From a virus (Duplodnaviria; Heunggongvirae; Uroviricota; Caudoviricetes), in IMG/VR virus record IMGVR_UViG_2713897161_000007: 26,780 bases of DNA; one strand, 5' to 3'. Numbering within the stretch: position 1 is the stretch's first letter; every line of letters begins with the position of its first letter. The notes below the pieces were generated by a model, which saw only the letters and a program-made list of their open reading frames with translations, had not been told where the DNA came from and did not search any database. Positions 3,330 to 22,749 of the stretch are shown one piece after another. The position numbers and the translations under genes were made by a program.

Positions 3330-3339
3330 CAGGTGCTTT

Positions 3340-3618: not shown

Positions 3619-3629
3619 AGGGTGTTGCG

Positions 3630-4985: not shown

Positions 4986-7822
4986 GTGCGTTTGCATGGA
5001 GCTGGAATGAACCACGGCCAGCCATTGATCCGGCCAGATTTACGGAGCGCAGGCAGGAAACTGAAACCGACCTGCAACGCGCCATCCGTTACTACCTTGA
5101 GGCAAACAAAAGGGCACAGGAAGAACAGGAAGCGAAGGAAGAAGCCTTTTTCGCACAATCCACCGTGGGTAAAAAACTCATGGCATCCCTTGAGGAAGCC
5201 GGACAGCGTGAAAAGCTGGCACAAAGCATCATCAGCAAGCGTCAGGCAACAGAACAAGACCCGGTGGCCCGTGCTTTTGCCACACTGAAGGTGCTTCCCG
5301 TTTATCTGCGTGAACCTCTGAGCCGCCACCTCTCTTTTCTGCGCAAGAAGCAGGAAGCCGATCGTCAGAAAGGCAAAAAGAGCTGGCAGGCTGAACGCTA
5401 CGCGCGCGGAACCCTGCGCAAAATATTCGAACGTCTGGACCGCACCGACAGCCGCTGGCTGACACCGGGCTATCGCTCCCTTGCCGGACGCGAACGCCTG
5501 GACGATTTGCTTTACCTGCCGCAGCTCAACAAACACCAGATACAGACGCTGGCCACCATGACGGCGGCGATGTTCAGTGGCACTTTTGAAAAACTCTGCG
5601 ATGGCTTTGGCGCGACCGATGGCGAGCTGACCATGGATGTAACGCTGAAGGCGTATCAGATGCTGGCCCGCATGGCGTTACACCTGCACGCTATGCCTCC
5701 ACATTATGACGCTCTGACAACAGACAAAGACCGGAGGAATGAACCGGACACGGAGCTGCTGCCGGGCGCAATCCTTCGCCTGACCTGTGCGGAATGGTGG
5801 AAACGCAAACTGTGGCTGTTACGTTGCGAGTGGAGAGAAGAACAACTCCGCGCCGCCTGTCTGGTTTCCAGAAAAACATCACCCTATCTGAGCCAGGACG
5901 CGTTAAGCGAGTTTCGCGCACAGCGCGAGAAAACACGCGATTTCCTGAAAAGTTTCATGCTGGAAAACGAAGACGGGTTCACGATTGATCTCGAGACAGT
6001 GTATTACGCGGGAGTAAGTAACCCGATTCACCGTAAGGCAGAAATGATGGCCACCATGAAGGGGCTGGAACTTCTGGCCGAAGCCCGTGGCGACAGAGCG
6101 GTGTTTCTGACTGTCACCTGCCCGTCAAAATACCACGCCACAACAGAGAACGGTCATCCGAATCCCAAATGGAACGGGGCCACCATGCGCGACTCCAGCG
6201 ATTACCTGGTTAACACGTTTTTTGCGGCGGTCCGCAAGAAACTGAACCGCGACGGCCTGCGCTGGTATGGCATCCGCACGGTGGAGCCTCACCATGACGG
6301 CACCGTGCACTGGCATATGATGGTCTTTGCTCATCCGGAAGAAATCGACACCATTGTGTCCCACACCCGCGATATTGCCATTCAGGAAGACCGCCACGAG
6401 CTGGGCAATGATATTACTCCGCGCTTTAAGGTGGAGTATGTCGACGGCTCAAAAGGCACGCCAACCAGCTACATCGCCACCTACATCGGAAAGAACCTGG
6501 ACAGCCGCGCCGTGGATGGCATCGACCCGAAAACGGGCAAGCCACGCGTTGACCACGAAACCGGAAAATCAATGGCCGAGAGCGTGGAACGCGCCATCGG
6601 CTGGGCACGCCTTCACCGGGTCCGCCAGTTCCAGTTCTTTGGCATCCCCTCCCGTCAGGTATGGCGTGAACTCCGCCGCCTTGCCAGCCAGATGGCACGC
6701 AACCCGGAAGGCCCACAACGGCTGAAGGATGATGCAATGGATGCGGTACTCGCTGCCGCTGATGCCGGATGTTTTGCCACCTACATTGAAAAACAGGGTG
6801 GCGTACTTGTTCCGCGCAAGGACTACCTGATTCGCACAGCCTACGACCTCGCAGATGAGCTGAACGATTACGGCGAACAGAGTGTACAGATTTACGGGAT
6901 CTGGTCGCCATTCATCGGGGAATCCTCCCGTGTGTGCACGCATCCGGATAACTGGAAGCTGGTAAGACGTAAACCGGAAGCGGAAGACAGCGCCCGCGAA
7001 AATGGTTTTGACCTTCAGGGCGGCCCTGCCGCCCCTTGGACTCGTGGCAATAACTGTCCCCGTGTACAGGAAACAGGCAACAACGGGACAGAACAGCCGG
7101 AAGAACGGCCAGCACCGTGGCCGCAGCTTCCTGACGGCGTTGAAGTAAATGAATGGATGCGCTCACTGAAACGGCACGAACGCCGGGCGCTGATGCGTTC
7201 GCTTCGTGACAAACAGGCAAAAAACAGCAGCGATGAAATGCAGAACTGGACACAGAGCCGCAAACAGCAGCGGCCTTTGCCTGATAACCACGAGTTACTC
7301 GCTAAAGAATGGCGGGAGTCTGCTGAATCTCTCGGCCTGCATATCGGTGAACAACAGATGCAGCACCTGTTACGGGGCGGCAGTCTGTACGTTGACGGCA
7401 GCATCATTGCACCGCAGGGATTTGAAATTGTACGCAAACCGGATACCCGCCCGGACAGCCGAATCACGCAGCTCTGGCAGCGTCTGAGCCGTAATCATGG
7501 CGTAAGCAGCACGGAGATCCGCCATAACCCGGTCGCCAGCTATCTGGCACAGCTGGGGGCATCAGACCCTGAAGCCGCCGCACGCCTGGCATCCACACTT
7601 CAGCAGGACCAGAACACCATGAAAACACCCGTTACCGTGCTTTCTGACATGCTGCGCGCCATCCGCGACGCAGAGCACGCACAGAGAATCAGTGAAACCA
7701 CTGAACGCGCCAGCCGCAAAGCAGACCTGCTGCGGGGTGGCCTGACCAGTGGAAACAAAAAACAGACAGAAACGGGACTCACGAATCCCGTAAATGAGCA
7801 AAAAACGCGCAGCGATATATGA
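4982..7822 (+). CDS. A: Rolling-circle replication initiator (HUH endonuclease), P2 gene A homologue
   Basis: HUH motif in TVHWHMMVF and paired catalytic tyrosines in YIATYIGK. Position matches P2 A. Start at 4982 or 4955. Confidence 0.85.
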   Translation: MSAFAWSWNEPRPAIDPARFTERRQETETDLQRAIRYYLEANKRAQEEQEAKEEAFFAQSTVGKKLMASLEEAGQREKLAQSIISKRQATEQDPVARAFATLKVLPVYLREPLSRHLSFLRKKQEADRQKGKKSWQAERYARGTLRKIFERLDRTDSRWLTPGYRSLAGRERLDDLLYLPQLNKHQIQTLATMTAAMFSGTFEKLCDGFGATDGELTMDVTLKAYQMLARMALHLHAMPPHYDALTTDKDRRNEPDTELLPGAILRLTCAEWWKRKLWLLRCEWREEQLRAACLVSRKTSPYLSQDALSEFRAQREKTRDFLKSFMLENEDGFTIDLETVYYAGVSNPIHRKAEMMATMKGLELLAEARGDRAVFLTVTCPSKYHATTENGHPNPKWNGATMRDSSDYLVNTFFAAVRKKLNRDGLRWYGIRTVEPHHDGTVHWHMMVFAHPEEIDTIVSHTRDIAIQEDRHELGNDITPRFKVEYVDGSKGTPTSYIATYIGKNLDSRAVDGIDPKTGKPRVDHETGKSMAESVERAIGWARLHRVRQFQFFGIPSRQVWRELRRLASQMARNPEGPQRLKDDAMDAVLAAADAGCFATYIEKQGGVLVPRKDYLIRTAYDLADELNDYGEQSVQIYGIWSPFIGESSRVCTHPDNWKLVRRKPEAEDSARENGFDLQGGPAAPWTRGNNCPRVQETGNNGTEQPEERPAPWPQLPDGVEVNEWMRSLKRHERRALMRSLRDKQAKNSSDEMQNWTQSRKQQRPLPDNHELLAKEWRESAESLGLHIGEQQMQHLLRGGSLYVDGSIIAPQGFEIVRKPDTRPDSRITQLWQRLSRNHGVSSTEIRHNPVASYLAQLGASDPEAAARLASTLQQDQNTMKTPVTVLSDMLRAIRDAEHAQRISETTERASRKADLLRGGLTSGNKKQTETGLTNPVNEQKTRSDI

Positions 7823-7898: not shown

Positions 7899-8858
7899 AT
7901 GAAAATTTACATCGACGACGGCTCCACCAACATCAAGCTGGCATGGACTGAGAACGGCGAACGCCGCAACGCCATCAGCCCGAACAGCTTCAAGTCGGAA
8001 TGGTCTGCGCCGTTCGGTGGCTCGCAGCCTGCTAACTACATGCTTGATGGCGTGCGCTATGGTTTTGATCCGGTCAGCGATCGCTTTGTCCAGACGACCG
8101 ACACGCAATACCAGTACAGCGATGTGAATGTCATTGCCATTCATCACGCGCTGGTCAAATCAGACATCACGCCACAGGAAGTGGATGTGGTTGTTACCCT
8201 GCCACTGAGCGAATATTTCGACACAAACGCACAGCCGGACATGGCCAACATCAACCGCAAAAAAGCGAACGTCATGCGCCCGGTGGAGTACCAGAACGGC
8301 GAAGCATTCACTATCCGTAACGTACGGGTTATGCCTGAATCCATTCCGGCTGGCTTTAAAGCACTGGCTGACATGAGTCCGTTTGAATCCCTGCTGATTG
8401 TGGATTTGGGCGGAACCACGCTGGATGTGGCAAAGGTTCAGGGGCAACTGGCAGGTATCAGCCAGGTGTTTTGCGATCCACACGTAGGCGTTTCTCTTAT
8501 GGCCGATGCCGTACTGTCGGTGATGGCCACTAACGGTATGCGCACCAGTCACCACATCGCCAATACCATTATCGAACATCGCCATAATGAAGCCTGGCTG
8601 CGCCAGCACATCCACAATGACGCGCATTACGCCAGCCTGATGGCGGTTATTCGTGAAAAGGAAGAAACACTGAAACAACGCGTGATCCGCGCGCTGGCGG
8701 TTTTTTCGGGTTACGGGCGGGTGATGGTTGTCGGTGGCGGGGCGGAGATTGTGGCACCCGCTATCCGCGAAGCCTGCGGAGTTAATGCGACTTTCATCGC
8801 GGACGGGGTGCCACAGTTTGCTCTGGTTAATGGGCTGTACGCAATGGACAAGGAGTAA
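7899..8858 (+). CDS. parM: ParM/StbA-family actin-like ATPase
   Basis: 319-aa ORF. N-terminus MKIYIDDGSTNIKLAW...ISPNSFKSEW and YSDVNVIAIHHAL match the plasmid R1 ParM signature. RBS AAGGA 8 nt upstream. Confidence 0.8.
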   Translation: MKIYIDDGSTNIKLAWTENGERRNAISPNSFKSEWSAPFGGSQPANYMLDGVRYGFDPVSDRFVQTTDTQYQYSDVNVIAIHHALVKSDITPQEVDVVVTLPLSEYFDTNAQPDMANINRKKANVMRPVEYQNGEAFTIRNVRVMPESIPAGFKALADMSPFESLLIVDLGGTTLDVAKVQGQLAGISQVFCDPHVGVSLMADAVLSVMATNGMRTSHHIANTIIEHRHNEAWLRQHIHNDAHYASLMAVIREKEETLKQRVIRALAVFSGYGRVMVVGGGAEIVAPAIREACGVNATFIADGVPQFALVNGLYAMDKE

Positions 8859-8862
8859 ACCA

Positions 8863-9174
8863 ATGACGACACCAACCAGACGGATAAGTTTCTATCTGAA
8901 GCCCGCCGCCGTCAAGAACGAAGGAGAAGCATGCGCCTGGCTGGACAGCCTTACACCAGAAGCCCGCAAAAGCGGCCAACGCGTGGCTTTTCTGGCCGGG
9001 CTGGCACTTCTGAAGACGAATCCGGCAGAGGCTTACCGACTGGCCGCATGGGCTGATGATGAGATGTTACCTGTGACACAAATCAGCTCAAAAAAGTTTG
9101 AAGCACAGTCTGCACCAGTGGCTAAGATAACCAGCCAGATGGCTGGGAATATCCGGGCGTTATTTCCTGAGTAA
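8863..9174 (+). CDS. parR: ParR-like ribbon-helix-helix centromere-binding protein
   Basis: 104-aa product from ATG 8863. RISFYLKPA and RVAFLAGLAL resemble R1 ParR (TIAFKLNP, RAALTAGLAL). Directly follows parM. Confidence 0.65.
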   Translation: MTTPTRRISFYLKPAAVKNEGEACAWLDSLTPEARKSGQRVAFLAGLALLKTNPAEAYRLAAWADDEMLPVTQISSKKFEAQSAPVAKITSQMAGNIRALFPE

Positions 9175-9244
9175 AAGCATCTGCGCGAAAAATGCTCACG
9201 TTTATAGAGACAGTATCATTCCATTTGGCACACTTACTTCAATA

Positions 9245-9331
9245 ATCGATCTGTTAAACAAATAGATTGTCTATTATCTATCGATTAAAACGATCAATTA
9301 TCTTGACAGTAATGTGCCTTTTTGTAAGATC
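9245..9331 (+). promoter_or_regulatory. Nested palindromes (AATCGAT...ATCGATT; TAGAT...ATCTA) directly upstream of a sigma70-like promoter (TTGACA-16-TAAGAT)
   Basis: TTGACA at 9303-9308, TAAGAT at 9325-9330; inverted repeats at 9245-9286 abut the -35. Confidence 0.35.
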
Positions 9332-9363
9332 GTTCGCATTGTGAGCGACAAGATAATTGCGCG

Positions 9364-9515
9364 GCATTGTCCATGCAAAACGCCCCAATAGCAGCAACTA
9401 TTGGGGCGTAAAACTCGGTCGGACTCACTTAACCTGATATGCGTGCCTTCCGAAGTAAATCAAAATGTGCGTCGTATATTTTATTGCTTACACGCACCTC
9501 TGTAAAGGCACGCAT
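9364..9515 (+). promoter_or_regulatory. Structured 5' leader or small RNA: hairpin CGCCCCAATAG/CTATTGGGGCG, then a long-range stem ATGCGTGCCTT/AAGGCACGCAT enclosing an inner hairpin and followed by a T-run
   Basis: Inverted repeats read directly: 9383-9410 and 9438-9510, then ATTTTT. Two short uORFs (11 and 29 codons) lie in the leader. Confidence 0.3.
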
Positions 9516-9538
9516 ATTTTTCCTATGAGGTAAATAAA

Positions 9539-9808
9539 GTGCGGGCTAAAACAGGTATTTGCAAGAACCCTCATCGTTATAATCCAACATTTCTGTCTCT
9601 CCCTGAATATCAAGGACAAGAAGGTCGGCACAAATGCGCTGCCTGTGCTTTTGAGCTAGGCATAAAAGATGCGCTTGAAGGACGCGCTATGGCTCAGAAT
9701 GATTTAGTTTTAGCTAACATTCCGTTTAGCCAGGCTGGAACTGTAAGGCACAGAGATGCCTATGAAGCATATGTTCGTGGTTGGCGATTAATAAACAGCA
9801 ACAATTGA
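9539..9808 (+). CDS. Hypothetical 89-aa protein with Cys/His cluster (possible zinc-binding), cargo in the A-cos slot
   Basis: GTG start with GAGG RBS 8 nt upstream. C-x3-H and H-x-C-x2-C spacing (ICKNPH...HKCAACAFE). Followed by an intrinsic terminator. Confidence 0.5.
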   Translation: MRAKTGICKNPHRYNPTFLSLPEYQGQEGRHKCAACAFELGIKDALEGRAMAQNDLVLANIPFSQAGTVRHRDAYEAYVRGWRLINSNN

Positions 9809-9816
9809 TACTTTTG

Positions 9817-9840
9817 AAGCGCCGATAAGGCGCTTTTTTT
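9817..9840 (+). terminator. Rho-independent terminator
   Basis: Stem AAGCGCC/GGCGCTT with loop GATA, then TTTTTTT. Confidence 0.6.
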
Positions 9841-10293
9841 GTTTGCACGATAGTGCACAAGTTTGCACAATTTTTTTGAACGACTTTTTGTACTTCCGGC
9901 CCGCGTGGTGGCTGGATCCGTCAAGGATCCGTACGTGCACAAAAAAACGCGTTTTTTCTGCGCGCAGGTGACGGGGGAACAGCCCGCGTTTCAGGGGGTA
10001 AATAGCATCCCCTGAACGATGTCGCAGCGACACAACAGAATGGCTGTATTTCTCACGCTGAGCGTGAAAAAGACGTGAGGGCTTTTGATTTGATGGGTGG
10101 CAGATAAGGCCGTCAAAATCGCACTGAGGCGGCGAGAACATGCAGTCAACGCGGTGGGATTGCGTAAGAGTCTGACCGCCGATGATGACAATAAGCAGAA
10201 AAGCGTCGTGAAATTATCTGATTGATACAGGAGCTGGAGAGTCGGGGCATAAATTTTTTATGCCCCGGCGAAGCAGCAGACAAGCGAAGCGCG

Positions 10294-11340
10294 TCAGGAT
10301 GTGGGCTGGGTATCTAGCAGTGCGTAAGGGTTAAAGCGGATCACCTCTTCGCCAAGCCAGTCATTGATGTGCTTCATGGCCTCCATGACGGGCATCAGCT
10401 CGTTAATTGCGTAAACCCGCGCGGCCTTCTCCACATCACCAAACGCACTTTTTTCGCCCGGCATCGCCCCCATCAGTTGCGGCGGAACGCGGTGCGCAGC
10501 CAGCACATCATCACGGGATGCCGCCTTAACATTCATGAACTCATCCTTTGCAGTGATCTGCTGGAACGGCAAAATTTGCACACCTTCTTTGCCCCCGTTG
10601 GGCGCATGGATGAGTACGTTTTTAAACGCACCACCACCACGCGCGCCCTGTAACGTTTCTTTCAGGGAGTCCATGCTTTCGCGGTTTACCTGCGCTGCAC
10701 CGATGTAGATGATGCACCCGGCGTGGGATCCGTTGTCGTAGTACAGTTTTCTGAACATGTCCGCCGAATGAGAAAGGCTGGCCGAGAGTAATGCGCCAAG
10801 ATATTCCGGCATGCCGTAGATTTCCTGGTTAATATCCGGATTCATCAGGTGGCACACTTTGCCAGGGCGAAACTGGAACGCGTCCTTGCCATCCTGCACA
10901 TACCACCATGATTCAAGATCGCTTCCGCGTCGCATGTATTTCGCCAGGGCGTGCCGTAATTTAAGCGGTTCGCCGAGCATATTGCTTCTAAGCTCAAGGA
11001 ATGCGTTACCGAACACAAACCAGTCCAGCGCCAGCGCCGAGAAATCCTGCCGGGAAAGCAGCGGGTGCGGGATGTAGCAACCGAGTAATACATTGCGCTT
11101 AAAGTAAAGCGCAGACTGATGCCAGGACGTTTGCCGGGCTGCTCTTGCCAGACCGTACCAGTCCACCGGGGTTTCATACCACCGTCCGTTATCAGCACAG
11201 TACATATTGTCCAGCAGGTCATGCCCGGTCAGGCGATAAGGACCATCAAATGTGAATGCACTGAGCGATGATTCTTTCCTGAGCGCATCAGCGAGATCAA
11301 TGCGTGAACTCATGCGCACTTTTTTATTTTTTCTGCTCAT
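10294..11340 (-). CDS. Q: Portal protein, P2 gpQ homologue
   Basis: 348-aa ORF immediately downstream of terminase with overlapping stop/start; size and position match P2 Q. Confidence 0.85.
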   Translation of the reverse strand: MSRKNKKVRMSSRIDLADALRKESSLSAFTFDGPYRLTGHDLLDNMYCADNGRWYETPVDWYGLARAARQTSWHQSALYFKRNVLLGCYIPHPLLSRQDFSALALDWFVFGNAFLELRSNMLGEPLKLRHALAKYMRRGSDLESWWYVQDGKDAFQFRPGKVCHLMNPDINQEIYGMPEYLGALLSASLSHSADMFRKLYYDNGSHAGCIIYIGAAQVNRESMDSLKETLQGARGGGAFKNVLIHAPNGGKEGVQILPFQQITAKDEFMNVKAASRDDVLAAHRVPPQLMGAMPGEKSAFGDVEKAARVYAINELMPVMEAMKHINDWLGEEVIRFNPYALLDTQPTS

Positions 11341-13091
11341 CAGAACTCCATAACCGTGAAACGCTCGTTTTCTCCTTCGCCGCCAATCGGTTCGTTAATG
11401 ACAGCAAGCATGGTTGCCCACGCAAGGTCGCCGTGGCTGATCCCCCTCGCGCGGTCCGTTTCGTAAGTGATAAAGCCGCCCGGTGTTTTCACCTTACGCA
11501 CGGCGTTAAAGGCCGCGACCAGCTCGCGTTCGGCGCGATCGTATTCCCACCGCCCGGCACGCATTATTTGCAGCATTTTCAGTACCAGCGACCGTTTTGA
11601 TGACAGCGTGAAGGTGTACGGAATAGCAGCAGGGAAAAACCGTTTCACTATCTGATAAACAGCCTCCCCGTTCCCGCCCGTCACATCAATGCCGATGTGT
11701 TCCACGTTGTAGCGATACGTGAACTCTTCAATGACTCTGGCCTGTTCTTCAAACTCCAGCCCCTGAACGCGTCGCGTCTCCACCGTTCGAAAACGGCCAC
11801 CAAGAACAGCCGGAGGAACCACCACGGACACAGCGCCGCTGTCGCCGTTGCCACTACTGCCGTTTGCGTCATACCCAATCCATACCGGACGATTCCCCAT
11901 CGGGCGGGGAGCAAAAGGTTTCCAGTCTTTCCAGTCGTCGTATCCGTCAACACCGCAGCCAATCAGGATATTCAGGTTAAATGCCGATTCCCCTTCGCGG
12001 ACAAACTCACACATATAGAGATTGAGGAACTCGTCTTCGGTGTTTTCATCACGAATTTCGTCGATATCGGTGTGTTTCCAGCCGTGATTGACCACATCTT
12101 CCAGCGTGACAATTTGCCGCCACGTCCGGTCAGGGCAGATAAGCCCGTTATGCAGAGTTTTCCAGTCCACAGAAAAACGCTGGCGTTTATGCGTGGCCTT
12201 TTTCTCGTTCCAGCGGTCGCCGTTCCAGTAGGCGTATGCCTCGTGCGTTTCGGTGGATGGCGTGGAGAAGTAGGTGCGCCGCAGTCCGCTGAGGGTTGCC
12301 ATAGCGCCAGCCACCTTGCGCAGTTCAGCAAAGCGACTGACCCAGAAAAATTCATCAAAATAAAAATTGCCCGTATAGGACTGTGCCGACGCAGCAGAAG
12401 TGCCGAGAAAATGCAGCTCTGCGCCGTTGGAGAGGATGATTTTATCGCCCCCTTTCAGCTCCACATCAACTTCAGCCGCGGCCTTCTGAATAATGCTTTT
12501 AAACTGGAACGCCTGACGACGCGACGCAGACAAAAAAATCTGGTTACGCTGGTAAGGTTGCGCCACATCGTCACGCAGCGCCATCAGCAGAGCTTCCTGT
12601 GCAAAATACCAGGTCGCCCCAATCTGTCGGGATTTCAGGATCATCCTGTTACGTATCCCGGCTTCCCTGCAAAGGGTCAGGGAGTCAAACCAGCCCCGCT
12701 GATGCCACTCCAGCCTGCTGATGATTTTTTCCCGCAGTGCGGCAATCTGTTCCGGCGTGAAATGATTTTTGAGTTTTTTCGCCCGGCCTTTCTTTCCTGT
12801 GACCGTCGCATCCGGCTGGCCATCATGCAGTTTTTTAAGCTGCCGGGTCAGCAGGTCTATTTCCTTAAAGTCACCGCCTGTTTTATTCTGTTTTTCAGTA
12901 AGCTGGATGAGGCGCGCATCGATGGACTGCGTGACACGCTGCACGGGTGGCGTTTCATCCCACTGGTCGCGTTTTTTCCACGCATAAATCGTGTTCGGGT
13001 TTATTCCCATCAGACGTGATATTTCTGCGGGCGGATAACCCTGCCAGTAAAGTTGCCGCGCACGCTGGCGCACAAAAGCGTCCTGAATCAT
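11340..13091 (-). CDS. P: Terminase large (ATPase) subunit, P2 gpP homologue
   Basis: 583-aa ORF, close to P2 gpP length. Divergent from O, as in P2. Confidence 0.9.
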   Translation of the reverse strand: MIQDAFVRQRARQLYWQGYPPAEISRLMGINPNTIYAWKKRDQWDETPPVQRVTQSIDARLIQLTEKQNKTGGDFKEIDLLTRQLKKLHDGQPDATVTGKKGRAKKLKNHFTPEQIAALREKIISRLEWHQRGWFDSLTLCREAGIRNRMILKSRQIGATWYFAQEALLMALRDDVAQPYQRNQIFLSASRRQAFQFKSIIQKAAAEVDVELKGGDKIILSNGAELHFLGTSAASAQSYTGNFYFDEFFWVSRFAELRKVAGAMATLSGLRRTYFSTPSTETHEAYAYWNGDRWNEKKATHKRQRFSVDWKTLHNGLICPDRTWRQIVTLEDVVNHGWKHTDIDEIRDENTEDEFLNLYMCEFVREGESAFNLNILIGCGVDGYDDWKDWKPFAPRPMGNRPVWIGYDANGSSGNGDSGAVSVVVPPAVLGGRFRTVETRRVQGLEFEEQARVIEEFTYRYNVEHIGIDVTGGNGEAVYQIVKRFFPAAIPYTFTLSSKRSLVLKMLQIMRAGRWEYDRAERELVAAFNAVRKVKTPGGFITYETDRARGISHGDLAWATMLAVINEPIGGEGENERFTVMEF

Positions 13092-13245
13092 TGCTCCCCC
13101 TGAGTAATTACAGGAAGATTACCCGCGCGCGAAACTGTTCTCCTTAACCCCCTGTTCTGGCCGTTTTCTTACAACAAAATCCCTTTGTATCAGCCTGTTA
13201 CGCTTTGCCATCATGACTGAAGAACCAGTCAGAGGGGCAAAAACT

Positions 13246-14082
13246 ATGGCTAATGAAAAAAAGACATCCCGCAAAAAGTTTCGCGTGGCTGTCTCCGGAT
13301 CAACTGTTGATGGCCGTGAAATCAGTCCGGTGCATCTGCGTGAAGCCGCCGAGAACTTCAACCCGGATGTTTACGCTGCCCGCGTGAACGTTGAGCACTA
13401 TCTCTCGCCATGCCCGTCAAGCGAATTTTCCGCAATGGGCGATGTCACCGCGCTGAGTACGGAAGATATTACGGAAGGCCCGCTGGCCGGACGTACTGCG
13501 CTGTATGCAGAAATCGAACCGACCGAGCGCATGAAGCAGCTTGTCGCTGACGGCAAGAAAATCTATTCCAGTATCGAACTGCACCCGCAGTTCTCCGTTA
13601 ACGGGCGTGCCTATCTGGTCGGGCTGGCGATGACCGACACCCCGGCAAGCCTGGGCACTGAGCGCCTGAAATTCACGGCACAGCAGCGTCAGGCGGTGAT
13701 GACGTTCAACAGTATCCAGGGTGAAGCACCGCTTATCTCCGAAGCCATCGAGTCTGAAATCATCGAAATGGCAGAACAACGCCAGGAAGAAGGCACCCAG
13801 TGGTTTAACCGCGTAATGGGGATTATTGGTCGTGGCCGCAAAGCGGATGACGCCAGTTTCTCCCGTATTCAGGAAGCGGTGGAAGGCGTTGCAACATCAC
13901 AGGCCGACATTATCGACCGTTTTAATGTGCTGGAAACCCGCCATCAGTAGGACCGCCAGAAAATCACGTCACTGACCACAGAGCTGACAGCACTGAAGGA
14001 AAAACTGCGCACGCAGGACGGCGATCCGCAGAACCGCTTCACCGCAACGGGCGCAGCCTCCGACCAGCTGGCTGACTTCTGA
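13246..14082 (+). pseudogene. O: Capsid scaffold/protease gene (P2 gpO homologue) interrupted by an in-frame TAG at 13948-13950; frame continues 43 codons to TGA at 14080-14082
   Basis: N-terminus MANEKKTSRKKFRVAVSGSTVDGREIS matches the gpO pattern. After ...ETRHQ-TAG the same frame reads DRQKITSLTTELTALKEKLRTQ...QLADF with no internal ATG. Summed length is close to P2 gpO. Confidence 0.7.
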
Positions 14083-14105
14083 TAAGACAAAGGAGCAAAT
14101 TTTTT

Positions 14106-14744
14106 ATGAATCTGGTGATGTCAGATATTACCCGCAACAAGCTGGGGTGCTATATGGCGCAGCAGGCGTCGCTTAACAATATCCCGGTATCTGCACTGGT
14201 ATCGCGATTTACCGTGGAACCCGCGGTGCAGCAGCGTTTTGAAAACGCCTCAAAGGAAAGTACCGAATTTACGAAAAGAATTAACGTGATCGGCGTGACC
14301 GACCAGAAAGGCGAAAAAATCCTCCTGGACACCACCGGGCCAATTGCGCGCACGAATAGCAGTTATGACGGCATCAAACGCCGTAAAACGGTTTATGACG
14401 TGGCATCAGGGGACTCGTTATTTATTTCTGAACTCGGTCCATTACCGGAAAATGTTACCTGGTTGTCGCCGTATGGAGAGTATCAGAAGTGGAACGGCAC
14501 ATCCTGGGTGAAAGATGCAGAAGCAGAAAAACTGTTTCGGATAAGGGAGGCGGAAGAAACAAAAAACAGCCTGATGCAGGTAGCCAGCGAGCATATTGCG
14601 CCACTTCAGGATGCCGTAGATTTGGATATTGCAACGGAGGAAGAGGCATCGTTACTGGCTGCATGGAAGACATACCGGGTATTGTTGAATCGTGTTAATA
14701 CAGCGGTAGCAGCGGATGTTGAGTGGCCAGTCGCCCCACAATAA
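14106..14744 (+). CDS. Chimeric ORF: N-terminal ~90 aa of major capsid protein (gpN-like) fused in frame to the C-terminal ~120 aa of a tail fibre assembly protein (Tfa/gpG-like)
   Basis: Residues ~30-90 ([10 protein letters not shown]...[17 protein letters not shown]) match the P2 gpN N-terminus as remembered. Residues 94-212 ([23 protein letters not shown]...[11 protein letters not shown]...EWPVAP) match lambda/P2 Tfa C-termini. Junction near 14370-14385. Confidence 0.7.
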
Positions 14745-14780
14745 AGAGAAAAAGCCATCGATTGAAATATAGATGGCTTT
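14745..14780. terminator. Hairpin between convergent genes; T-rich on the minus strand (terminator for the acetyltransferase gene)
   Basis: Stem AAGCCATC (14752-14759) / GATGGCTT (14772-14779); minus-strand reading is followed by TTTTTCTCTTT. Confidence 0.5.
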
Positions 14781-14787
14781 ATGTACT

Positions 14788-15393
14788 CTATTTATACAAT
14801 ACAACACCGCTCTTTTTAGTTATATATGTGCAGTTCGATGGTATATCTTTATTTATAAAAGACATTGCACCTATTTTTACATTATCCCCAATTTTACGTG
14901 ATAATCCAATGATGCAACAATTAGCTCCGATATCAACGTTACTACCAATTTTTACTCTTGAACCAGGCATGTCACCATCTATCTGTCCAATGGTAGTATT
15001 CTGTCGTAACACCAGATTTTCACCAGCATCAACAGCAAAATGAACAACAATTCCAGCATGATGGGGAATTGTTAACCCTTTTCCAATATTTGCGCCCAAT
15101 CCAATTTCACAACCAAATTTGTTAATTATTTTACTGTTTAACTTTTTGGCTGCTTTCTTATGTAATTTATTACCATTAATATACATTTCGTTAGCCAACC
15201 GCCACCAGAAAAGGAAATTCCGGTTACGCTGTTTTTTCTCTCTTAAAAGCCTCCAGATATCCATACGTTTCCGCCGAATTACTTCATATTTCCAGAAGTT
15301 TTTTAAATTAGTAGAGTCCCCAAATAAAACAAAGTGAATTGCCATTAAGTAAGACAGCACGATAATCTCCTTAATTATTATTTCAGACCACAC
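14788..15393 (-). CDS. Hexapeptide-repeat acetyltransferase, serine O-acetyltransferase (CysE/WcaB-like) family
   Basis: 201-aa ORF with left-handed beta-helix hexapeptide repeats (IGANIGKG, IGSNVDIGAN, IGDNVKIGAM) and a CysE-like segment before them. AT-rich. Start may be GTG at 15360 after AAGGAG. Confidence 0.8.
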   Translation of the reverse strand: MWSEIIIKEIIVLSYLMAIHFVLFGDSTNLKNFWKYEVIRRKRMDIWRLLREKKQRNRNFLFWWRLANEMYINGNKLHKKAAKKLNSKIINKFGCEIGLGANIGKGLTIPHHAGIVVHFAVDAGENLVLRQNTTIGQIDGDMPGSRVKIGSNVDIGANCCIIGLSRKIGDNVKIGAMSFINKDIPSNCTYITKKSGVVLYK

Positions 15394-15516
15394 ATATTAT
15401 AAGGTTAAGAGATTATAAAATCCTGTTGTTTGTTATTCAAAAACAATTTTCTGAGAAGGACATACAACAGCAAGTCGCCAGTCACCTTCATCAGGAAATT
15501 GGCGACATACGTTAAA

Positions 15517-16011
15517 TCAGAGCAGCCCCTTAACTGAGCTGGTCGCGCTATTAAGGGATGATGTCACCTTATCTTTGAAGCCGGACAACATATCGCTGAA
15601 CGATGAGGATTGCAGGCGCTCCCGCAAATCCTCATCACAGCGTTCAAGAGTCAGTGAAAATTCTATCTTTTTCGCCTTACCGTAGCGATCAAACTCGGAG
15701 CGGGTCGTATTCGTTTCGGTCAGGACATACATGCCGTAAATCTGCCCGACGCCATCAATCAGAGGCCAGGGCCGTCCTGTATACGCCTGCGTGGTCAGCA
15801 GAGACAGCGACACTTCGCCACCTGTAATTTCAGGATAAAGCACACCAGAAAGAACGATGCGATCATCACCTGCACCGATATACTGCCAGCTTGCTGAACG
15901 GTTAACGCGTTCATTTTTCACATGCCGCCAGCTTTTGTTTTGCTGTAACTGCTGATGCGGCAGCGTGCGCAGCTCAAAAACAAACATGCCATAGATCATC
16001 ATCATGGCCAT
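15517..16011 (-). CDS. U: Tail protein, P2 gpU homologue
   Basis: 164-aa ORF downstream of the tape measure gene; N-terminus MMMIYGMFVFELRTLPHQQLQ resembles gpU. Hairpin plus T-rich tract follows on the minus strand. Confidence 0.8.
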   Translation of the reverse strand: MAMMMIYGMFVFELRTLPHQQLQQNKSWRHVKNERVNRSASWQYIGAGDDRIVLSGVLYPEITGGEVSLSLLTTQAYTGRPWPLIDGVGQIYGMYVLTETNTTRSEFDRYGKAKKIEFSLTLERCDEDLRERLQSSSFSDMLSGFKDKVTSSLNSATSSVKGLL

Positions 16012-16017
16012 GACTCC

Positions 16018-18861
16018 TCAATCTTTATCGTAAAAACTGCCACGCCCGGCACGGGCGCGCCGTTCCATTTCTGCCCTGACCATTTCACCGACCAGTTTCG
16101 CCAGTTCGCGGGGATTCTGCGTAACAACGTTATGCAGATGAACATGAATTTCACCGCCAAATCTGGAGACAGCAGGCTCCCGATTACGGGAAGCTGCAGG
16201 AACTGATGCCACTGGCGATCGTATGGCCTCCGCCACCGGGCGGGAGCTGGCCGCAACAACAGGGACCAGCGCCGGAGGCAGCGGAGCCGGGACTACGGGT
16301 GTGATATTAATTGCGGGGGCAGGCTTACTGACCTGCGCAATCTTCCGCTCCTGCCACTCCCCACGAACAGCAAGTGCGCGGGGCAGGTTCTTAAAGACAA
16401 TATCGCCAGGGCCAATGCGTTTTTTCGTCTCATCAACCAGCTTACCTGTGTTATCAGCAATTTTGCTGAGTCTGCGTAGCGTCCCGGTATTGCTGTCTGT
16501 GAGCGGTTTGTTGTCTTTGGGTTTATCACCTCCGGTGCCATTGCCATTTTCCACAGGCTTCGGCGGATTGATTTTCGCCAGGTCCCCCTGAAGTAAGGCA
16601 ACCTTATCCTGAAGAATGGCCGCACGCTGTGCGTCTTCGATTTTCTTGCGCGCCCTTTCCGCTTCATCCGGAAGGACGCCAAGTTTTTCAAGTATCCACG
16701 CCAGCGTATCCAGTAGCATTTTTGCAGGTGTCAGAACAAGTTGTAACGCACCGCCAAGAACGTTACCGAATATCTCGCCAGCACTGGTACATTTATCCAG
16801 CGTTTCCTTGCTGGACTCCATCGGTGACAGCAGCGATTTAAACCAGTTAAACACCTGGCTGATCCCGCTTCCGATTGCGTCAAAAACAGGGCCAAACCGT
16901 TCAAAGGTTTCACGCAACGGGTTCAGCCTTTCCATAATCCCGCTGAACACCCCGGCAAAAAATGCCCTGATGGGATCCCAGTATTTCCAGATAAGGACGG
17001 CAGCTCCGGCAAGCGCAGCCACGATAAGACCAACCGGACTGAACAGCGCCCCGATAGCGCCTCCCAGTAAAGAAACGGAACCCGTCACCATTCCCCATAG
17101 TGCTGGCAGGACCCTGACAGCATTCATTGATCCGGTCAGGAGAGAAAAACCAAGACGCAGTTTTGCCAGCGGACCAGCAAGCACACCAATAGCCAGCGAC
17201 AACGAGCCAACCGTTGCAGTCATTGCCAGCAACGCACCGCCTGCTATCAGTAGCTGGCGCGTCAGTGCCGGATGGGCCTGCGCCAGCGCCGTCACCCTTG
17301 ATACCACCCGCGTGAGCCACTGCGTGACAGAACGCAGCGGACCGTCAATCAGATCTGCAATGCGGATGCGCAACCCTTCCCATGCACTGCCGAGTGATTT
17401 CAGATCGCCGTCAAGGTTGTTGGCCATAACCTTTGCTGTGCGTTCAGCCTCACCGCGCGCGCCTTCAAGTTCTTTTCTCAGTTTGGGTAAGGAACCGTCA
17501 CCCACTGCATCAACGAGCGCCATAAACGATGTGAAAGCCTCTTCTCCGGCAATGTCCTTAAAGAACGATACCCGGTCAACTTCCCCGTATTTGCGGGTGG
17601 CTTTATAAAGGTCGGCCAGCACATCCTCCATCGGGCGCATTTTACCCCCGGCATCCGAGACGGACACGCCCAGCTCTTTCAGAGCTTCTGCCGCCGCCTT
17701 TGGCGGTGATGCCAGACGAGCCAGGCTGGCACGCATTGCCGTCCCGGCATCACTCCCTCTGATGCCCATATTCGCCAGCACACCAGCCATCGCTGCGGCC
17801 TGCTCCAGCGATATTCCCAGCTTACCCGCCACCGGACCTGCATATTTCATGGTTTCGCCCAGTGCGCGAAGGTCAGTGTTGGTACGGGTAAACGCTGCGG
17901 TGAGTGTGTCACCGACCCGGTCCATCTGGTCAGCAGAAAGGCCGAACTGCGTCAGGATATTTGAGCCAATATCTGCCGTCTCGCCGAGATCCATACCGCC
18001 AGCCGTTGCCATGCTCAGCACTCCGGGAAGCGCAGCCTGAATGGCCTGCGGTGTGAAGCCTGCCATTGCAAGAAATGCCTGCCCACTGGCGGCATCGCCT
18101 GCGGTGAACTGCGTTTCAGAGCCAAGTTTTAACGCCTGCTCACGCAGCGCCTTAAACTGCGGGCTGTTCTGGTCGATTCGCGTCAGCGCCTGAACGCGGG
18201 ACATCTCTTTGCCGAACCCGATCGCGGGCTGCAAAAAACGCCCGGCAGCATAGCCGCCCGCCGCTGCCGCACCAATTGCCAGCGCACCACCTGTTTTCAG
18301 TTTTCCCGCGGTTTCCTGCGCGCGCGAATACCACTCACGCGCCCGCGTTACACGCGCAAGCGCCTGCCGTTCGCGTTCAAGCTGGTTGTTGTACTGTTCG
18401 GTGCGTCTGATGGCCTGCTGGATGGTGTTATCGCTGCCTGTCAGGGAAATGCCGTGGCGTTTCAGCTCTCCGCCAAGCTCCCGCATTTTCTGAATTTCCC
18501 GTGTGCGCGATTCATTCAGGCGTTCAAGCCGGGTGCTTAACTGCTGCATCAGCTTTTGTTGTTTTTCGCTGAGCACTGTACCCGTGCGTTGTAACTGATT
18601 AAGGGCGTTAAGCTGGCGTCGTGCTTTCACGATACCCGCATCCGCTTTACTGACAGCGTCGCGGGCGCGCTCAAATGAACGAGCCTGACGCTCGAGATTT
18701 TTAATCGCCCCCTGCGTTCGCTGGATGGAGTCACCAAACTGCCCCATCAGGCGGCGGGCGTTTTCGGCAGGCCGGGTCAGCCTGTCAACGGCGCTGAAAG
18801 CGACCCGGATATCAAGAGTCTTCATTGTCTGCATTCCCGCTGCGAAGTGCCGCCCGCTCAC
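16018..18861 (-). CDS. T: Tail tape measure protein, P2 gpT homologue
   Basis: 947-aa ORF, coiled-coil-rich N-half and hydrophobic Gly/Ala-rich central segments. Start is GTG at 18861 or ATG at 18834/18825. Confidence 0.9.
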   Translation of the reverse strand: MSGRHFAAGMQTMKTLDIRVAFSAVDRLTRPAENARRLMGQFGDSIQRTQGAIKNLERQARSFERARDAVSKADAGIVKARRQLNALNQLQRTGTVLSEKQQKLMQQLSTRLERLNESRTREIQKMRELGGELKRHGISLTGSDNTIQQAIRRTEQYNNQLERERQALARVTRAREWYSRAQETAGKLKTGGALAIGAAAAGGYAAGRFLQPAIGFGKEMSRVQALTRIDQNSPQFKALREQALKLGSETQFTAGDAASGQAFLAMAGFTPQAIQAALPGVLSMATAGGMDLGETADIGSNILTQFGLSADQMDRVGDTLTAAFTRTNTDLRALGETMKYAGPVAGKLGISLEQAAAMAGVLANMGIRGSDAGTAMRASLARLASPPKAAAEALKELGVSVSDAGGKMRPMEDVLADLYKATRKYGEVDRVSFFKDIAGEEAFTSFMALVDAVGDGSLPKLRKELEGARGEAERTAKVMANNLDGDLKSLGSAWEGLRIRIADLIDGPLRSVTQWLTRVVSRVTALAQAHPALTRQLLIAGGALLAMTATVGSLSLAIGVLAGPLAKLRLGFSLLTGSMNAVRVLPALWGMVTGSVSLLGGAIGALFSPVGLIVAALAGAAVLIWKYWDPIRAFFAGVFSGIMERLNPLRETFERFGPVFDAIGSGISQVFNWFKSLLSPMESSKETLDKCTSAGEIFGNVLGGALQLVLTPAKMLLDTLAWILEKLGVLPDEAERARKKIEDAQRAAILQDKVALLQGDLAKINPPKPVENGNGTGGDKPKDNKPLTDSNTGTLRRLSKIADNTGKLVDETKKRIGPGDIVFKNLPRALAVRGEWQERKIAQVSKPAPAINITPVVPAPLPPALVPVVAASSRPVAEAIRSPVASVPAASRNREPAVSRFGGEIHVHLHNVVTQNPRELAKLVGEMVRAEMERRARAGRGSFYDKD

Positions 18862-19341
18862 GCCAGCTAACCACTTCGCCGGGCGTCATCATGAAGATTT
18901 CGGCGGGCGACCAGTTAAAAATAACGGCAATATCTGCCACAAAGTCTTCTATGTGCTCAAAGCACACAACCGTGATCAGGCTTCCGTCGCCTGTTCGTTC
19001 TTCCCGCCAGAGTCCGCACCGCTCAAAAAATTTACGGCAACCACACATAACTGAATAAAGTCACGGGATGCCATTTTTTTGATCGTCACTTCATCCAGTC
19101 GCGGTGATGTCACGCGTGACAGCAGCGTAAACATGGATTCCGCTTTCAGATTCAGCACATCAGACAGCGACAAATCTCGCAGAGATCCAGCCTGCTCAAT
19201 AGCCCCGGTGATCTCCACATACGTGATTTTTTCGCCGCCTCGCTCAATTGGTTGGGTAAGTTTTACACCACGCTCACTGGTTTCTTTCACAGTGTCAGCA
19301 ACTACCGTGTTTTCGGTATCGATGTTTTTCGTCTCTTTCAT
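18812..19341 (-). CDS. E+E' fusion product made by programmed -1 frameshift; E' portion reads ...FFERCGLWREERTG... and ends at 18812, overlapping the T start
   Basis: The -1 frame is open from the slippery site to 18812 and closed just upstream (stop at 19061-19063). Same architecture as the P2 E/E' frameshift. Confidence 0.7.
18976..19341 (-). CDS. E: Tail assembly chaperone, P2 gpE homologue
   Basis: 121-aa ORF with AGGAG RBS; contains slippery heptamer T_TTT_TTG near its 3' end. Confidence 0.75.
   Translation of the reverse strand: MKETKNIDTENTVVADTVKETSERGVKLTQPIERGGEKITYVEITGAIEQAGSLRDLSLSDVLNLKAESMFTLLSRVTSPRLDEVTIKKMASRDFIQLCVVAVNFLSGADSGGKNEQATEA
19024..19030 (-). promoter_or_regulatory. 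Slippery heptamer T_TTT_TTG for the E/E' -1 frameshift
   Basis: Plus-strand CAAAAAA at 19024-19030; in the E frame the codons read AAT TTT TTG AGC (N F L S). Confidence 0.7.
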
Positions 19342-19395
19342 CAGGAAACTCCTTTCAGTCAGAGGCGACGCACTGCGCCGCCTGCATATTACTTA

Positions 19396-19908
19396 TCAGC
19401 CAAGCCCGAGCGCGGAACGGATGCGATCGGGCACAATGTCCTTGCCGTCCTTCCGGTAAATGAAGTTCAGCAGGTCAATCTCCCACAACGGGCGATCGTT
19501 AACACTCAGCTTGTAGTAGGTGTTTTTAATGGCGTAAGTGTGTGATGTGGCTTCGCCCTGTTTGGCTTCCCCCATATCAATTTCCGTCACACGTCCGCGC
19601 ATTTCGACTTCATACAGGTCGCTTTCTGCATCGGTGTAATATTCACCCGCAAAACGCAGCAGCGTGCCGTCAATCGTGCCGCCATACTTAAGGAACAGCT
19701 CACGAACTGCGCCCCCCATGACAAAGCTCGCATCAAGCGCGGAGTCGTCCAGACCGAGATCAATACTTACCGCACCCATCATGCCACCACCCCGGTAGCT
19801 GTCGGTTTTGCGCGTCAGCTTAGGCAGAGTGACGGACGTCACCTTACCCACTTCGTTTTCACCATCCACAAACAGCGTAAAAAAGCGAAGATGTTTTGGT
19901 ACAGCCAT
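19396..19908 (-). CDS. FII: Tail tube protein, P2 gpFII homologue
   Basis: 170-aa ORF immediately downstream of the sheath gene; length and position match gpFII. Confidence 0.9.
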   Translation of the reverse strand: MAVPKHLRFFTLFVDGENEVGKVTSVTLPKLTRKTDSYRGGGMMGAVSIDLGLDDSALDASFVMGGAVRELFLKYGGTIDGTLLRFAGEYYTDAESDLYEVEMRGRVTEIDMGEAKQGEATSHTYAIKNTYYKLSVNDRPLWEIDLLNFIYRKDGKDIVPDRIRSALGLG

Positions 19909-21092
19909 CAGGCACCTCCCAGCACCGCAAATGCGGGTTCAAAGTATTCATCAGTAAACGTCTGGTAAAGCTCCATGTCTTCCAGTGGCGGAACGGGCGT
20001 ATATTTGTAGCGAATACGCACACGCCCCTGACGTAAATCCGTGGTGCTGTTATCCACCACGTCATACCAGCACTCCGCGCCAATCAGTTTCCCGGCAGTA
20101 ACCAGCGAATCCAGTTTTGCCCTGATGGCACTGATAACATCCTTCACGTTCGCAGGCGTCAGTGGACTGTCGATGGTTTCAAACTGCGCTTCCGCAATTG
20201 AATCAGCCAGCACCTGTGCGGTTCGGGTATACACCTCAAAGATGTAGGCGTTCGTTTCCGGTGTGCGGTTGCCCCAGAAGCGGAACCCGTTGCGACGAAT
20301 AATGGTCGTGATTTCTTTGTTGTTGAGGCTGTTGGCATCACTGTCTTCGGCCTGCAACGACCAGAAAACATGCCTGGACATCCCCAGCACATTTTTAACA
20401 GGAACGTTGGACAGCGATTTGTGCCAGCCCTGCTCATGGTCAATGTACGCACGAAGGCCGCACGCATAGGCAGGCGCGGGGAACGTTTCGTTTTTGCCAC
20501 TTTTCGGGTTGTAGGCGATGAAGTCCGGCCATAAGAGCATCACCTCACGTTCGTTGAATTTCTGGCGGTAGGTAATTGCCTCAGCCATCGTGTTACAGTC
20601 ATGACATGAGGCATACACAAACGCGCGCAGTTTACCCGCAATCACGCACAGGGATTTTGTCACCGCCTCCGTGTCCAGCTCCGGCGCGGCCAGAATACGC
20701 GGACGGTATCCGATGCTTTCATCCTGCTCTGCAACAAGCAGCGCATACATCCCCGTATAGCTGCCGTCAGATTCAGAACCACCGATAACCAGTTGATCCT
20801 GCGTCTTACCGCCTTCTTCTTTGTGTTCAGCCACGCGAACGACGATCACTTTTGTGCTCACCTGGTCTGCAATAGCCTTAAGCGCACGATAAAGCGTCCC
20901 CGTAGTCCCGCATTTTCCCAGCACGTCATTGACGCGGGTCAGCAGTGTGGGCTTGTTCAGCGGGAACAGCTCCGCGTCCGCATCATCCGCCGTTGCCACG
21001 ATACCGATAACACTGGAATCAACATCATTAATCGCTGTTACCAGGTCGGTACTTTCCGTAACACGGGCACCATGAAAACGAGTTTCACTCAT
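19908..21092 (-). CDS. FI: Contractile tail sheath protein, P2 gpFI homologue
   Basis: 394-aa ORF. Motifs match gpFI: FPLNKP, YRQ.F..RE, WPDF, GWHK.LSNV, IRR.GFRFWGNRT, YTPVPPLE. Confidence 0.9.
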   Translation of the reverse strand: MSETRFHGARVTESTDLVTAINDVDSSVIGIVATADDADAELFPLNKPTLLTRVNDVLGKCGTTGTLYRALKAIADQVSTKVIVVRVAEHKEEGGKTQDQLVIGGSESDGSYTGMYALLVAEQDESIGYRPRILAAPELDTEAVTKSLCVIAGKLRAFVYASCHDCNTMAEAITYRQKFNEREVMLLWPDFIAYNPKSGKNETFPAPAYACGLRAYIDHEQGWHKSLSNVPVKNVLGMSRHVFWSLQAEDSDANSLNNKEITTIIRRNGFRFWGNRTPETNAYIFEVYTRTAQVLADSIAEAQFETIDSPLTPANVKDVISAIRAKLDSLVTAGKLIGAECWYDVVDNSTTDLRQGRVRIRYKYTPVPPLEDMELYQTFTDEYFEPAFAVLGGA

Positions 21093-21249
21093 AGCTTCAG
21101 CCCCTTGTATCCGTTAAATGATTCGGCAACAATCATCACCCACCACGCGCGTAATCTCACCCCTGCGCCGTTCTCCCGCCACGGCGACAACAAAAAGCAG
21201 TAACCCCCTATGCACGCACATGCGACCATGCCGCACAGGGAGGGAACAG

Positions 21250-22350
21250 ATGACCGATACCACCATGCAATTGCTCAGTCAGAGCACAGACCCCGTGAAA
21301 ATGCCGGATTTTGATATTCTCGCGGAGGGGGAAACACTGTCCGGCGTGGCAGAGCGCCTGATGAGCCTGTCACTGACCGACAACCGGGGATTTGAAGCGG
21401 ACCTGCTCACCATCACGCTGGATGATGCGGATGGTCAGTTGCAGCTACCGCCACGGGGCGCGCGCCTGACGGTTCTCATTGGCTGGAAAGGAGAACCGCT
21501 GACAGAAAAAGGCACTTACATTGTTGATGAAATCGCTCACGAAGGACCGCCGGACAGGCTGACTGTTTCAGCCAGAAGCGCAGATTTTCGGGATGAATTT
21601 AACGTTAAACGTGAGGTGTCCTGGCATGATGTGACCGTTGAGCGCGTGGTATCCGCCATCGCTCATCGGTACGGTCTGAAACCACAAATCAGCGAAATGC
21701 TGATGGATATTGAAATCGACCACGCCGACCAGACCGAAGAAAGCGACATGTCCTTCCTTACGCGCATGGCGGAAATGCTGGGCGCAATCACTACGGTAAA
21801 AAGCAGTAATCTGTTATTCATCATGCCAGGCGGTGGCGTGAACGCACAGGGCCAGCCGTTGCCATCGTTCGCCATCACGCGCAGCAGTGGCGATCGCCAT
21901 CAGTTCCGCATTGCTGACCGCGAAGCGTATACGGGGGTACGTGCTTACTGGCTTGATCTTAATTACGGGAAAAAGAAAAAAGTCAGCGTGAAACGCCGCA
22001 AACCGAAAAAGGAGAAAAGCAGCAGCCGTGAAGGTGACTATATGGAAGGTGCGGAAGGCAACGTGTTTGTGTTACGCAAGACTTATCAGAACGAGCAGGC
22101 AGCAAGACGTGCAGCGGCGGCAAAGTGGCAGCAGCTACAACGCGGAGCCGCATCATTCTCCATCACGCTGGCGCGTGGACGCGCAGAACTCTATCCCGAA
22201 ATGCATGGCACGGTGACAGGCTTCAAAAGTGACATCGATAATCAGGACTGGATTATTGCAAAAGCCGAGCACACCATTGATAACAGCGGCTTTACCACAC
22301 AGCTTGAGCTTGAAGCAAAAATCCCGGAATGGATAGCAGAAACAGAATGA
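21250..22350 (+). CDS. D: Tail protein, P2 gpD homologue
   Basis: ATG at 21250 preceded by GGGAGGGAA. Motifs LTLTDNRGFEAD, DRLT.SARSADFR, ESWHD, EGDYMEG, AKW..LQRG, NSGFTT.LELE match gpD. Confidence 0.85.
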   Translation: MTDTTMQLLSQSTDPVKMPDFDILAEGETLSGVAERLMSLSLTDNRGFEADLLTITLDDADGQLQLPPRGARLTVLIGWKGEPLTEKGTYIVDEIAHEGPPDRLTVSARSADFRDEFNVKREVSWHDVTVERVVSAIAHRYGLKPQISEMLMDIEIDHADQTEESDMSFLTRMAEMLGAITTVKSSNLLFIMPGGGVNAQGQPLPSFAITRSSGDRHQFRIADREAYTGVRAYWLDLNYGKKKKVSVKRRKPKKEKSSSREGDYMEGAEGNVFVLRKTYQNEQAARRAAAAKWQQLQRGAASFSITLARGRAELYPEMHGTVTGFKSDIDNQDWIIAKAEHTIDNSGFTTQLELEAKIPEWIAETE

Positions 22351-22749
22351 GCAAATTAGATGTATTGACTCAAACCAGAACTGACACACTCACAGCACAG
22401 TGCCAGACCCAATCTGGCAGCCCGCTTTGTGCCTAGAGCAGGTGTTGCTTATGTAACAGTTAATCCACGGATAGTGGTCATGAATGCTGGTTGAAGTTGT
22501 ATTGCCATGAGTGGTCAATTAGGGACTCACTTATTATCGCGTGCTCACCATTGATGGGTAAGATCATGCATTTCGGCTACTGTACTTCGCGAATCCTCCG
22601 CACACAGGCAACACCTGATTTAAGAACAGAGGGAGATGATGACGCAAGGAAGATTTATTATCGTGCATGTGGCAGATGATCTTTTAGCTGCCGGAGTGAT
22701 AAATTACACCTATTTTCGATAAGTGTTTTTGTTATAGAACATTAATTTC

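Follow-up and report, generated by a model that had tools for sequence, protein, structure and literature searches.

Gene organization of the prophage

An open reading frame that starts as a capsid gene and ends as a tail fiber assembly gene raises two questions: how did two genes that lie about 9 kb apart in phage P88 come to share one frame, and does their joint product have a role? The window, i.e., the whole 26,780-nucleotide stretch of DNA that was analyzed, is almost wholly one P2-type prophage, which is inserted in the E. coli chromosome beside leuZ, in the interval from yecA to pgsA. Mapping was referenced to the closest intact relative, a P88-like (Xuanwuvirus) prophage of E. coli O103 strain RM8385 (NZ_CP028112.1) that lies between yecA and leuZ-cysT-glyW-pgsA. 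The features surrounding the fused open reading frame are the following.

1 to 1002, minus strand: integrase (Pfam Int_N and Phage_integrase), left prophage end, 0 amino-acid differences from RM8385
2051 to 2455, minus strand: HTH repressor
4982 to 7822, plus strand: replication gene A
7899 to 9174, plus strand: ParM/StbB
10294 to 11340, minus strand: portal gene Q (Pfam), intact, no stop codons relative to RM8385
11340 to 13091, minus strand: large terminase gene P (Pfam), intact, no stop codons relative to RM8385
13246 to 14082, plus strand: capsid scaffold/protease gene O, inactivated by an amber codon at 13948 to 13950
14788 to 15360, minus strand: cargo gene for a serine O-acetyltransferase, intact and convergently oriented to the fused open reading frame (RefSeq annotation of the identical RM8385 gene)
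15517 to 21092, minus strand: tail genes U, T, E'/E, FII, and FI (Pfam), all intact, no stop codons
21250 to 22350, plus strand: gene D (baseplate hub/late control D), intact
22750 to 23889, plus strand: SEC-C/YecA-family gene
24179 to 24439, plus strand: ogr/delta-type late-gene activator (annotation of the identical RM8385 gene), 0 amino-acid differences
24630 to 24770, plus strand: hok
25710 to 25833, no strand assigned: attachment-site repeat at the right-hand end, overlapping tRNA-Leu (leuZ) in its 3' part
25779 to 26780, minus strand: host tRNA-Leu/Cys/Gly and pgsA

The attachment-site repeat comprises 124 bp and matches the sequence just past int in RM8385 (L004, 10023 to 10146). The acetyltransferase shows 0 amino-acid differences from its RM8385 counterpart, and its hexapeptide-repeat Pfam matches fall below the gathering threshold. 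The ParM/StbA actin-like segregation ATPase with StbB and the hok/gef toxin represent plasmid-type maintenance genes, which are intact here and common to P88 and RM8385. Between StbB and the portal gene, approximately 670 bp (9175 to 9843) find no aligning sequence in RM8385, where an ead/Ea22-like gene takes this place; the segment, a variable cargo slot, contains an 89-residue open reading frame at about 9539 to 9808, and a similar-sized gene at the matching position of the carrier loci is on record without a Pfam match. The 19-nt cos sequence of P2 found no match at up to three mismatches, which says nothing about packaging potential, as the P88-type cos may differ.

While the original prediction had taken P2 as the comparator, P88 (NC_026014, Xuanwuvirus), an inducible phage that has been induced and propagated (PMC5285337), provides a better fit. 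P88 and RM8385 share with the window int, the repressor, A, and ParM/StbB, followed by Q and P in leftward and O and N in rightward orientation, the leftward genes U-T-E-FII-FI, the rightward gene D, and then ogr and hok; full-length N and G are located about 9 kb apart in P88 within this same layout. In the P88 group, FI-FII-E-T-U are natively on the opposite strand, and an additional rearrangement inverting FI to U was rejected, as RM8385 and P88 are natively oriented alike. RM8385 occupies the same integration site as the window and shows 99.6 to 99.9% DNA identity to it, whereas P88 is 97.7% identical over P-O-N'. P88 further differs in the type of G and in possessing an invertible alternative tail fiber segment with a DNA invertase where the window has the serine O-acetyltransferase. 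A tfa-acetyltransferase module with 92 to 94% identity is present in the large E. coli phages JL22 and Ro157c2YLVW.

Composition of the fused open reading frame

The fused open reading frame and its parts are arranged as follows.

14106 to 14744, plus strand: fused open reading frame, 212 amino acids, starting with ATG 8 nt downstream of an AAGGAG ribosome-binding site
14106 to 14386, plus strand: 5' part of N, the major capsid gene, comprising codons 1 to 93 plus 2 nt, with the native ribosome-binding site
14383 to 14386, plus strand: deletion junction; the 4-bp microhomology GTAA, found here once, occurs at each of the two endpoints in the intact relative
14387 to 14744, plus strand: 3' fragment of tail fiber assembly gene G, codons 74 to 192 plus stop

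It had been proposed from inspection of the letters and translations that a capsid N terminus and a tail-fiber-assembly C terminus are joined in frame near 14370 to 14385. Database comparisons confirmed this architecture and placed the junction at 14383 to 14386: residues 1 to 93 of a P2-family major capsid protein are followed by residues 74 to 192 of a tail fiber assembly protein, and the chimera reads ...DGIKRR/KTVYDV... across the join. In a Pfam search with the whole open reading frame, Phage_cap_P2 (PF05125) matched residues 15 to 93 (profile positions 4 to 81 of 327; E = 6e-18) with 65.4 bits against a curated cutoff of 27, which represents a family match. The match is confined to positions 4 to 81 of a profile whose full length (about 327 positions) corresponds to about 350 residues, whereas N of the intact relative covers positions 4 to 324; as judged from its sequence, the N-derived part is a fragment and not a capsid protein. 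Caudo_TAP (PF02413) matched residues 92 to 212 over the entire profile (1 to 131 of 131; E = 5.5e-39), i.e., the conserved C-terminal domain with the same span as in intact G, where it comprises residues 72 to 192, so that the whole domain is kept in the chimera. The two Pfam matches were recorded as non-overlapping.

Separate searches of the two halves against PHROGs, a check suggested by the original prediction, gave the same assignment. Residues 1 to 93 matched phrog_70 ("major head protein"; positions 1 to 83 of 345; E = 7e-25), and residues 94 to 212 matched phrog_105 ("tail fiber assembly"; positions 85 to 203 of 239; E = 1e-53). Residues 1 to 93 are 94% identical to the corresponding residues of the P88 capsid protein, and the last 119 residues do not differ from G residues 74 to 192 of the RM8385 prophage (100% identity). 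At the DNA level, positions 14106 to 14386 align with 4353 to 4633 of the RM8385 locus (L001) with 2 mismatches, and positions 14387 to 14744 are 100% identical to 16005 to 16362. The matches to both families are far beyond chance.

Tail fiber assembly (Tfa) proteins bind the fiber via a variable N-terminal region, and their conserved C-terminal helices drive trimerization (TfaMu, PDB 5YVQ; PMC9608196). With the known members of this group (PF02413; Mu U/TfaMu, P2 G, and lambda Tfa), the chimera shares the C-terminal part, and the helical C-terminal region of G aligns to residues 113 to 174 of Mu U. In contrast to these proteins, its own N-terminal region, the variable fiber-binding domain (G residues 1 to 73), is absent and swapped for the capsid fragment, and no fiber gene lies upstream: H is deleted, and the upstream neighbor is the scaffold gene O. 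The loss of "most of G" that had been assumed turned out to be too extensive, as only the first 73 of 192 codons (38%) are missing, whereas 62%, including the whole Caudo_TAP domain, is kept. In NCBI, the 212-residue chimera is named "tail fiber assembly protein" and carries no pseudogene flag (EHJ8671448.1, EIH6330020.1, EJV4826275.1, and HBC9911542.1).

A simple terminator scan downstream of the fused open reading frame found none. By eye, a hairpin is visible at about 14752 to 14781, with a T-run after it on the minus strand; with a loop of 12 nt, it was missed by the simple scan, and it looks like the terminator of the acetyltransferase gene.

Mapping of the deletion junction

Alignment to the RM8385 locus yielded two collinear blastn blocks. 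The left block joins window positions 9844 to 14386 to L001 positions 91 to 4633 (99.6% identity, no gaps), and the right block joins 14383 to 26780 to 16001 to 28399 (99.94%). The blocks overlap by exactly 4 bp, GTAA, and no sequence is inserted between them, i.e., the junction is seamless. A three-way comparison showed that GTAA occurs in intact RM8385 both at L001 4630 to 4633 within N (CGCC-GTAA-CCCG) and at 16001 to 16004 within G (CGGG-GTAA-AACG). Thus, a short direct repeat is present at both ends, one copy is retained, and filler or mobile-element DNA is lacking. Consistently, megablast matched window positions 13000 to 14386 to P88-like phages over P-O-N, and positions 14383 to 16100 to [quoted passage not shown] with 100% identity in many STEC genomes. 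The microhomology check that had been recommended for the junction thus returned a positive result.

In a simulation over plausible endpoints, a microhomology of at least 4 bp was expected in 1.9% of random endpoint pairs (0.019). Because such an overlap rarely arises by chance, a microhomology-mediated illegitimate event is favored. In this mechanism, a single deletion would have joined N codon 93 to G codon 74 at GTAA, probably by RecA-independent illegitimate recombination, i.e., replication slippage or microhomology-mediated end joining; it is the extent of homology, 4 bp, that argues for independence of RecA and of a site-specific recombinase. An invertase gene is annotated nowhere in the RM8385 prophage, with which the window is collinear.

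At the junction, the RM8385 prophage is longer by 11,371 bp. This length modulo 3 equals 1, which is the frame offset of G relative to N (+1); consequently, the fragments are read through to the stop codon of G itself. As this outcome has a one-in-three chance, selection need not be invoked to explain it. Note that this figure was obtained with a relative, RM8385, as the yardstick and not with the true ancestor. The RM8385 prophage contains a gene for a 625-residue sialate O-acetylesterase-like protein (L001 8305 to 10182, between lysC and R) that P88 lacks, so that the true extent of the deletion is uncertain: it may have been about 9.5 kb if the ancestor, like P88, was devoid of this 1.9-kb gene, compared to 11.4 kb relative to RM8385. 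The earlier estimate of approximately 10 kb is therefore fair for the former case and too low for the latter.

The same junction could have been generated by more than one event, either by two or more nested deletions, which would give an identical final product, or by recombination between two different coresident P2-like prophages that contributed N and G, respectively. Mosaicism is indeed seen, with the early region being 98.9% identical to RM8385 compared to 99.9% for the right arm, and the tail genes of some carriers contain recombination patches. However, on either side of the junction the window runs collinear with one and the same prophage, which occupies the identical chromosomal site, the host flank (leuZ-pgsA) is in the expected place, the junction is seamless, and no intermediate allele was present among the related alleles fetched. 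We therefore regard a multistep origin as extremely unlikely. A single deletion, as originally proposed, accounts for the one seamless gap between N and G in an otherwise collinear prophage, and with a probability of roughly 93%, the fused open reading frame is a chimeric pseudogene that arose when a P88-like E. coli prophage (Peduoviridae, Xuanwuvirus) suffered one internal deletion.

Genes lost by the deletion

Compared to the RM8385 annotation, the window lacks N codons 94 to 350, the genes for the small terminase M, the head completion protein L, and the tail protein X, the lysis genes (holin, M15 endolysin, LysB [DUF2570], and LysC), R, S, V, W, J, I, the gene for the 710-residue fiber protein H, and G codons 1 to 73. 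The 625-residue DUF1737-SASA-DUF6645 esterase-like cargo gene of RM8385 also falls within the deleted stretch. All genes in the list that had been drawn up from the P2 gene order are gone; X, LysC, and the esterase-like gene had not been included in it.

The consequences for the remnant were derived from its gene content and established P2 biology. The morphogenesis and lysis gene set of a functional phage is incomplete, and O additionally carries the amber codon. In agreement with the original prediction of a prophage incapable of forming heads and tail fibers or of lysing its host, for which the relevant genes are missing, the remnant is expected to be unable to form heads, baseplates, or fibers, to package DNA, or to lyse the host. 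What remains are functions for integration, immunity, replication, and partition and the cargo genes (acetyltransferase, hok, and the YecA-family gene).

Distribution, age, and further decay of the junction

The junction was absent from all complete E. coli genomes searched (0 of 5,426; queries of 3.1 kb and 301 bp). It was found in at least 24 independent public contigs from draft genomes and metagenomes, and 70 blocks of assemblies in a public collection contain a record of the exact 212-residue protein, which is also listed under several NCBI accessions. Six carrier loci, independently assembled from NCBI draft genomes and ENA metagenomes, were fetched. All six contain the identical junction 41-mer and the same neighbors (Q, P, O, the fusion, the acetyltransferase gene, U, and T), and a full-length N or G within 10 kb of the fusion was present in none of them; the possibility that intact relatives carry the fused gene alongside full N and G, named beforehand as an objection, was thus not borne out in these loci, nor was a lack of capsid similarity in the N-terminal part, given the Pfam, PHROGs, and P88 matches.

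Given the absence from all complete genomes, an assembly or chimeric-contig artifact was considered. Nothing was found in its favor, and the junction together with the exact 212-residue product occurs in independent NCBI drafts, ENA metagenomes, and Logan assemblies, some of the contigs being 100 to 280 kb long. These independent assemblies with the same junction exclude an artifact for practical purposes, and its probability is negligible. The junction is a genuine allele with a single origin.

Four of the six carrier loci differ from the window by only 1 to 2 bases, and this near-identity indicates that the lineage is young. In the other two (L005 and L006), the tail genes show additional differences. 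About 35 clustered SNPs are located in T, FI, and D of L006, in the zone corresponding to window positions 15991 to 22110, and a 9-bp insertion with 5 SNPs in D (window positions 22005 to 22110) is common to both loci, whereas their left arm is the same as that of the window except for the O-codon base in L006. These differences look like gene-conversion patches acquired from other P2-like prophages, and their distribution is out of step with that of the O amber codon.

The amber codon results from a C-to-T change at position 13948 relative to RM8385, which converts Q235 of O to TAG (Q235*). In the six other deletion-bearing loci, codon 235 is TAG in two and CAG in four. As four carriers retain CAG, the deletion came first and the amber mutation arose later in a sublineage. 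The remaining 28 prophage genes that were compared with RM8385 are free of internal stops (28/28), which indicates that decay is recent. The 11.4-kb deletion and the O amber codon are all the visible damage in the prophage of the window.

Possible function of the chimera

Several properties of the locus could suggest that the chimera has been kept for a function, either as a chaperone domain acting on the fibers of other prophages or as a capsid fragment that poisons the assembly of incoming P2/P88-like phages (superinfection exclusion). The full Caudo_TAP domain is retained, the gene has the native N ribosome-binding site in a late-operon context with an intact ogr activator gene, and the open reading frame is in frame and persists with identical sequence in many assemblies. 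However, being in frame is a one-in-three matter, and persistence reflects recent clonal descent rather than selection, since the carriers are only 0 to 2 SNPs from the window outside the recombination patches. A 93-residue piece of an HK97-fold capsid protein does not constitute an independent domain. On the chaperone side, residues 1 to 73 of G (PHROG 105 positions 1 to 84), and with them most of the variable fiber-binding N-terminal domain, are gone (PMC9608196), the cognate fiber gene H is deleted, and the upstream gene O of the same operon is already decaying. Retention for a function is therefore very unlikely, and we infer that the chimera lacks one. In view of the one-in-three odds, the non-domain capsid piece, the impaired chaperone piece without its cognate fiber, and the decay of the operon, the chimera is most simply regarded as a by-product of the deletion.

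A more far-reaching variant would view the 24-kb remnant as a mobile, helper-dependent element whose in-frame N93::G74 protein, made from the late O operon, interferes with capsid or fiber assembly of superinfecting phages. The remnant does keep intact int, repressor, A, ParM/StbB, portal, large terminase, ogr, sheath, tube, tape-measure, and D genes. We consider such an element very improbable. If it were true, the deletion would have created a satellite-like or defensive element rather than junk.

Comparison with other defective prophages

Unlike P88 and RM8385, the window lacks the 11.4 kb that separate N codon 93 from G codon 74, and its O gene carries an amber codon. Other P88-like prophages have suffered comparable losses. 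The alleles of K_EC180 and related swine ETEC strains join N codon ~215 to the C terminus of H (L002, 7107 to 8092); in AR_0128/EC7518, N codon ~172 is joined to I (L003, 5372 to 9064), and the AR_0128 allele additionally has a portal/terminase deletion; in B2C, the terminase is joined to nt 337 of N. In these deletions, head-completion, lysis, and baseplate genes are gone, whereas sheath, tube, and tape-measure genes are kept. As their endpoints differ from those in the window, they represent independent events. PGAP flags alleles of the K_EC180, AR_0128, and B2C type as pseudogenes, whereas the in-frame chimera of the window is annotated as a normal protein. Three independent alleles begin in N, but a deletion hotspot in this gene is not claimed, as the query design favored such alleles and few of the genomes with N are devoid of a full-length copy.

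About 20% of complete E. coli genomes contain an N gene of the P88 type. It is full length in 1,054 of the 1,095 complete genomes carrying N, which leaves about 41 (about 4%) without a full-length copy. In E. coli GmM066, a CRISPR-annotated stretch of 33 bp (NZ_CM183652.1, 4375635 to 4375667) is 100% identical to nt 994 to 1026 of the P88-type capsid gene and is an apparent spacer against this phage family.

Defective prophages of E. coli, such as those of the O157 Sakai pool, are eroded by deletions and point mutations but retain their genes for integration and regulation as well as cargo genes (PMC2669165, PMC6379469). The window does not differ in kind from these defective ("grounded") prophages but adds one recent, precisely mappable case. 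The fusion of N to G is ordinary prophage decay, known in kind, and the chimera itself matters little beyond bookkeeping. Within these bounds, the locus exposes an annotation slip, a chimera filed at NCBI as an ordinary "tail fiber assembly protein," and its junction sequence could mark the lineage of carrier strains. For the biology of these prophages, it offers an example, resolved to the single base, of how a prophage type widespread in E. coli was disabled, by what was probably a microhomology-mediated deletion and then by a point mutation.
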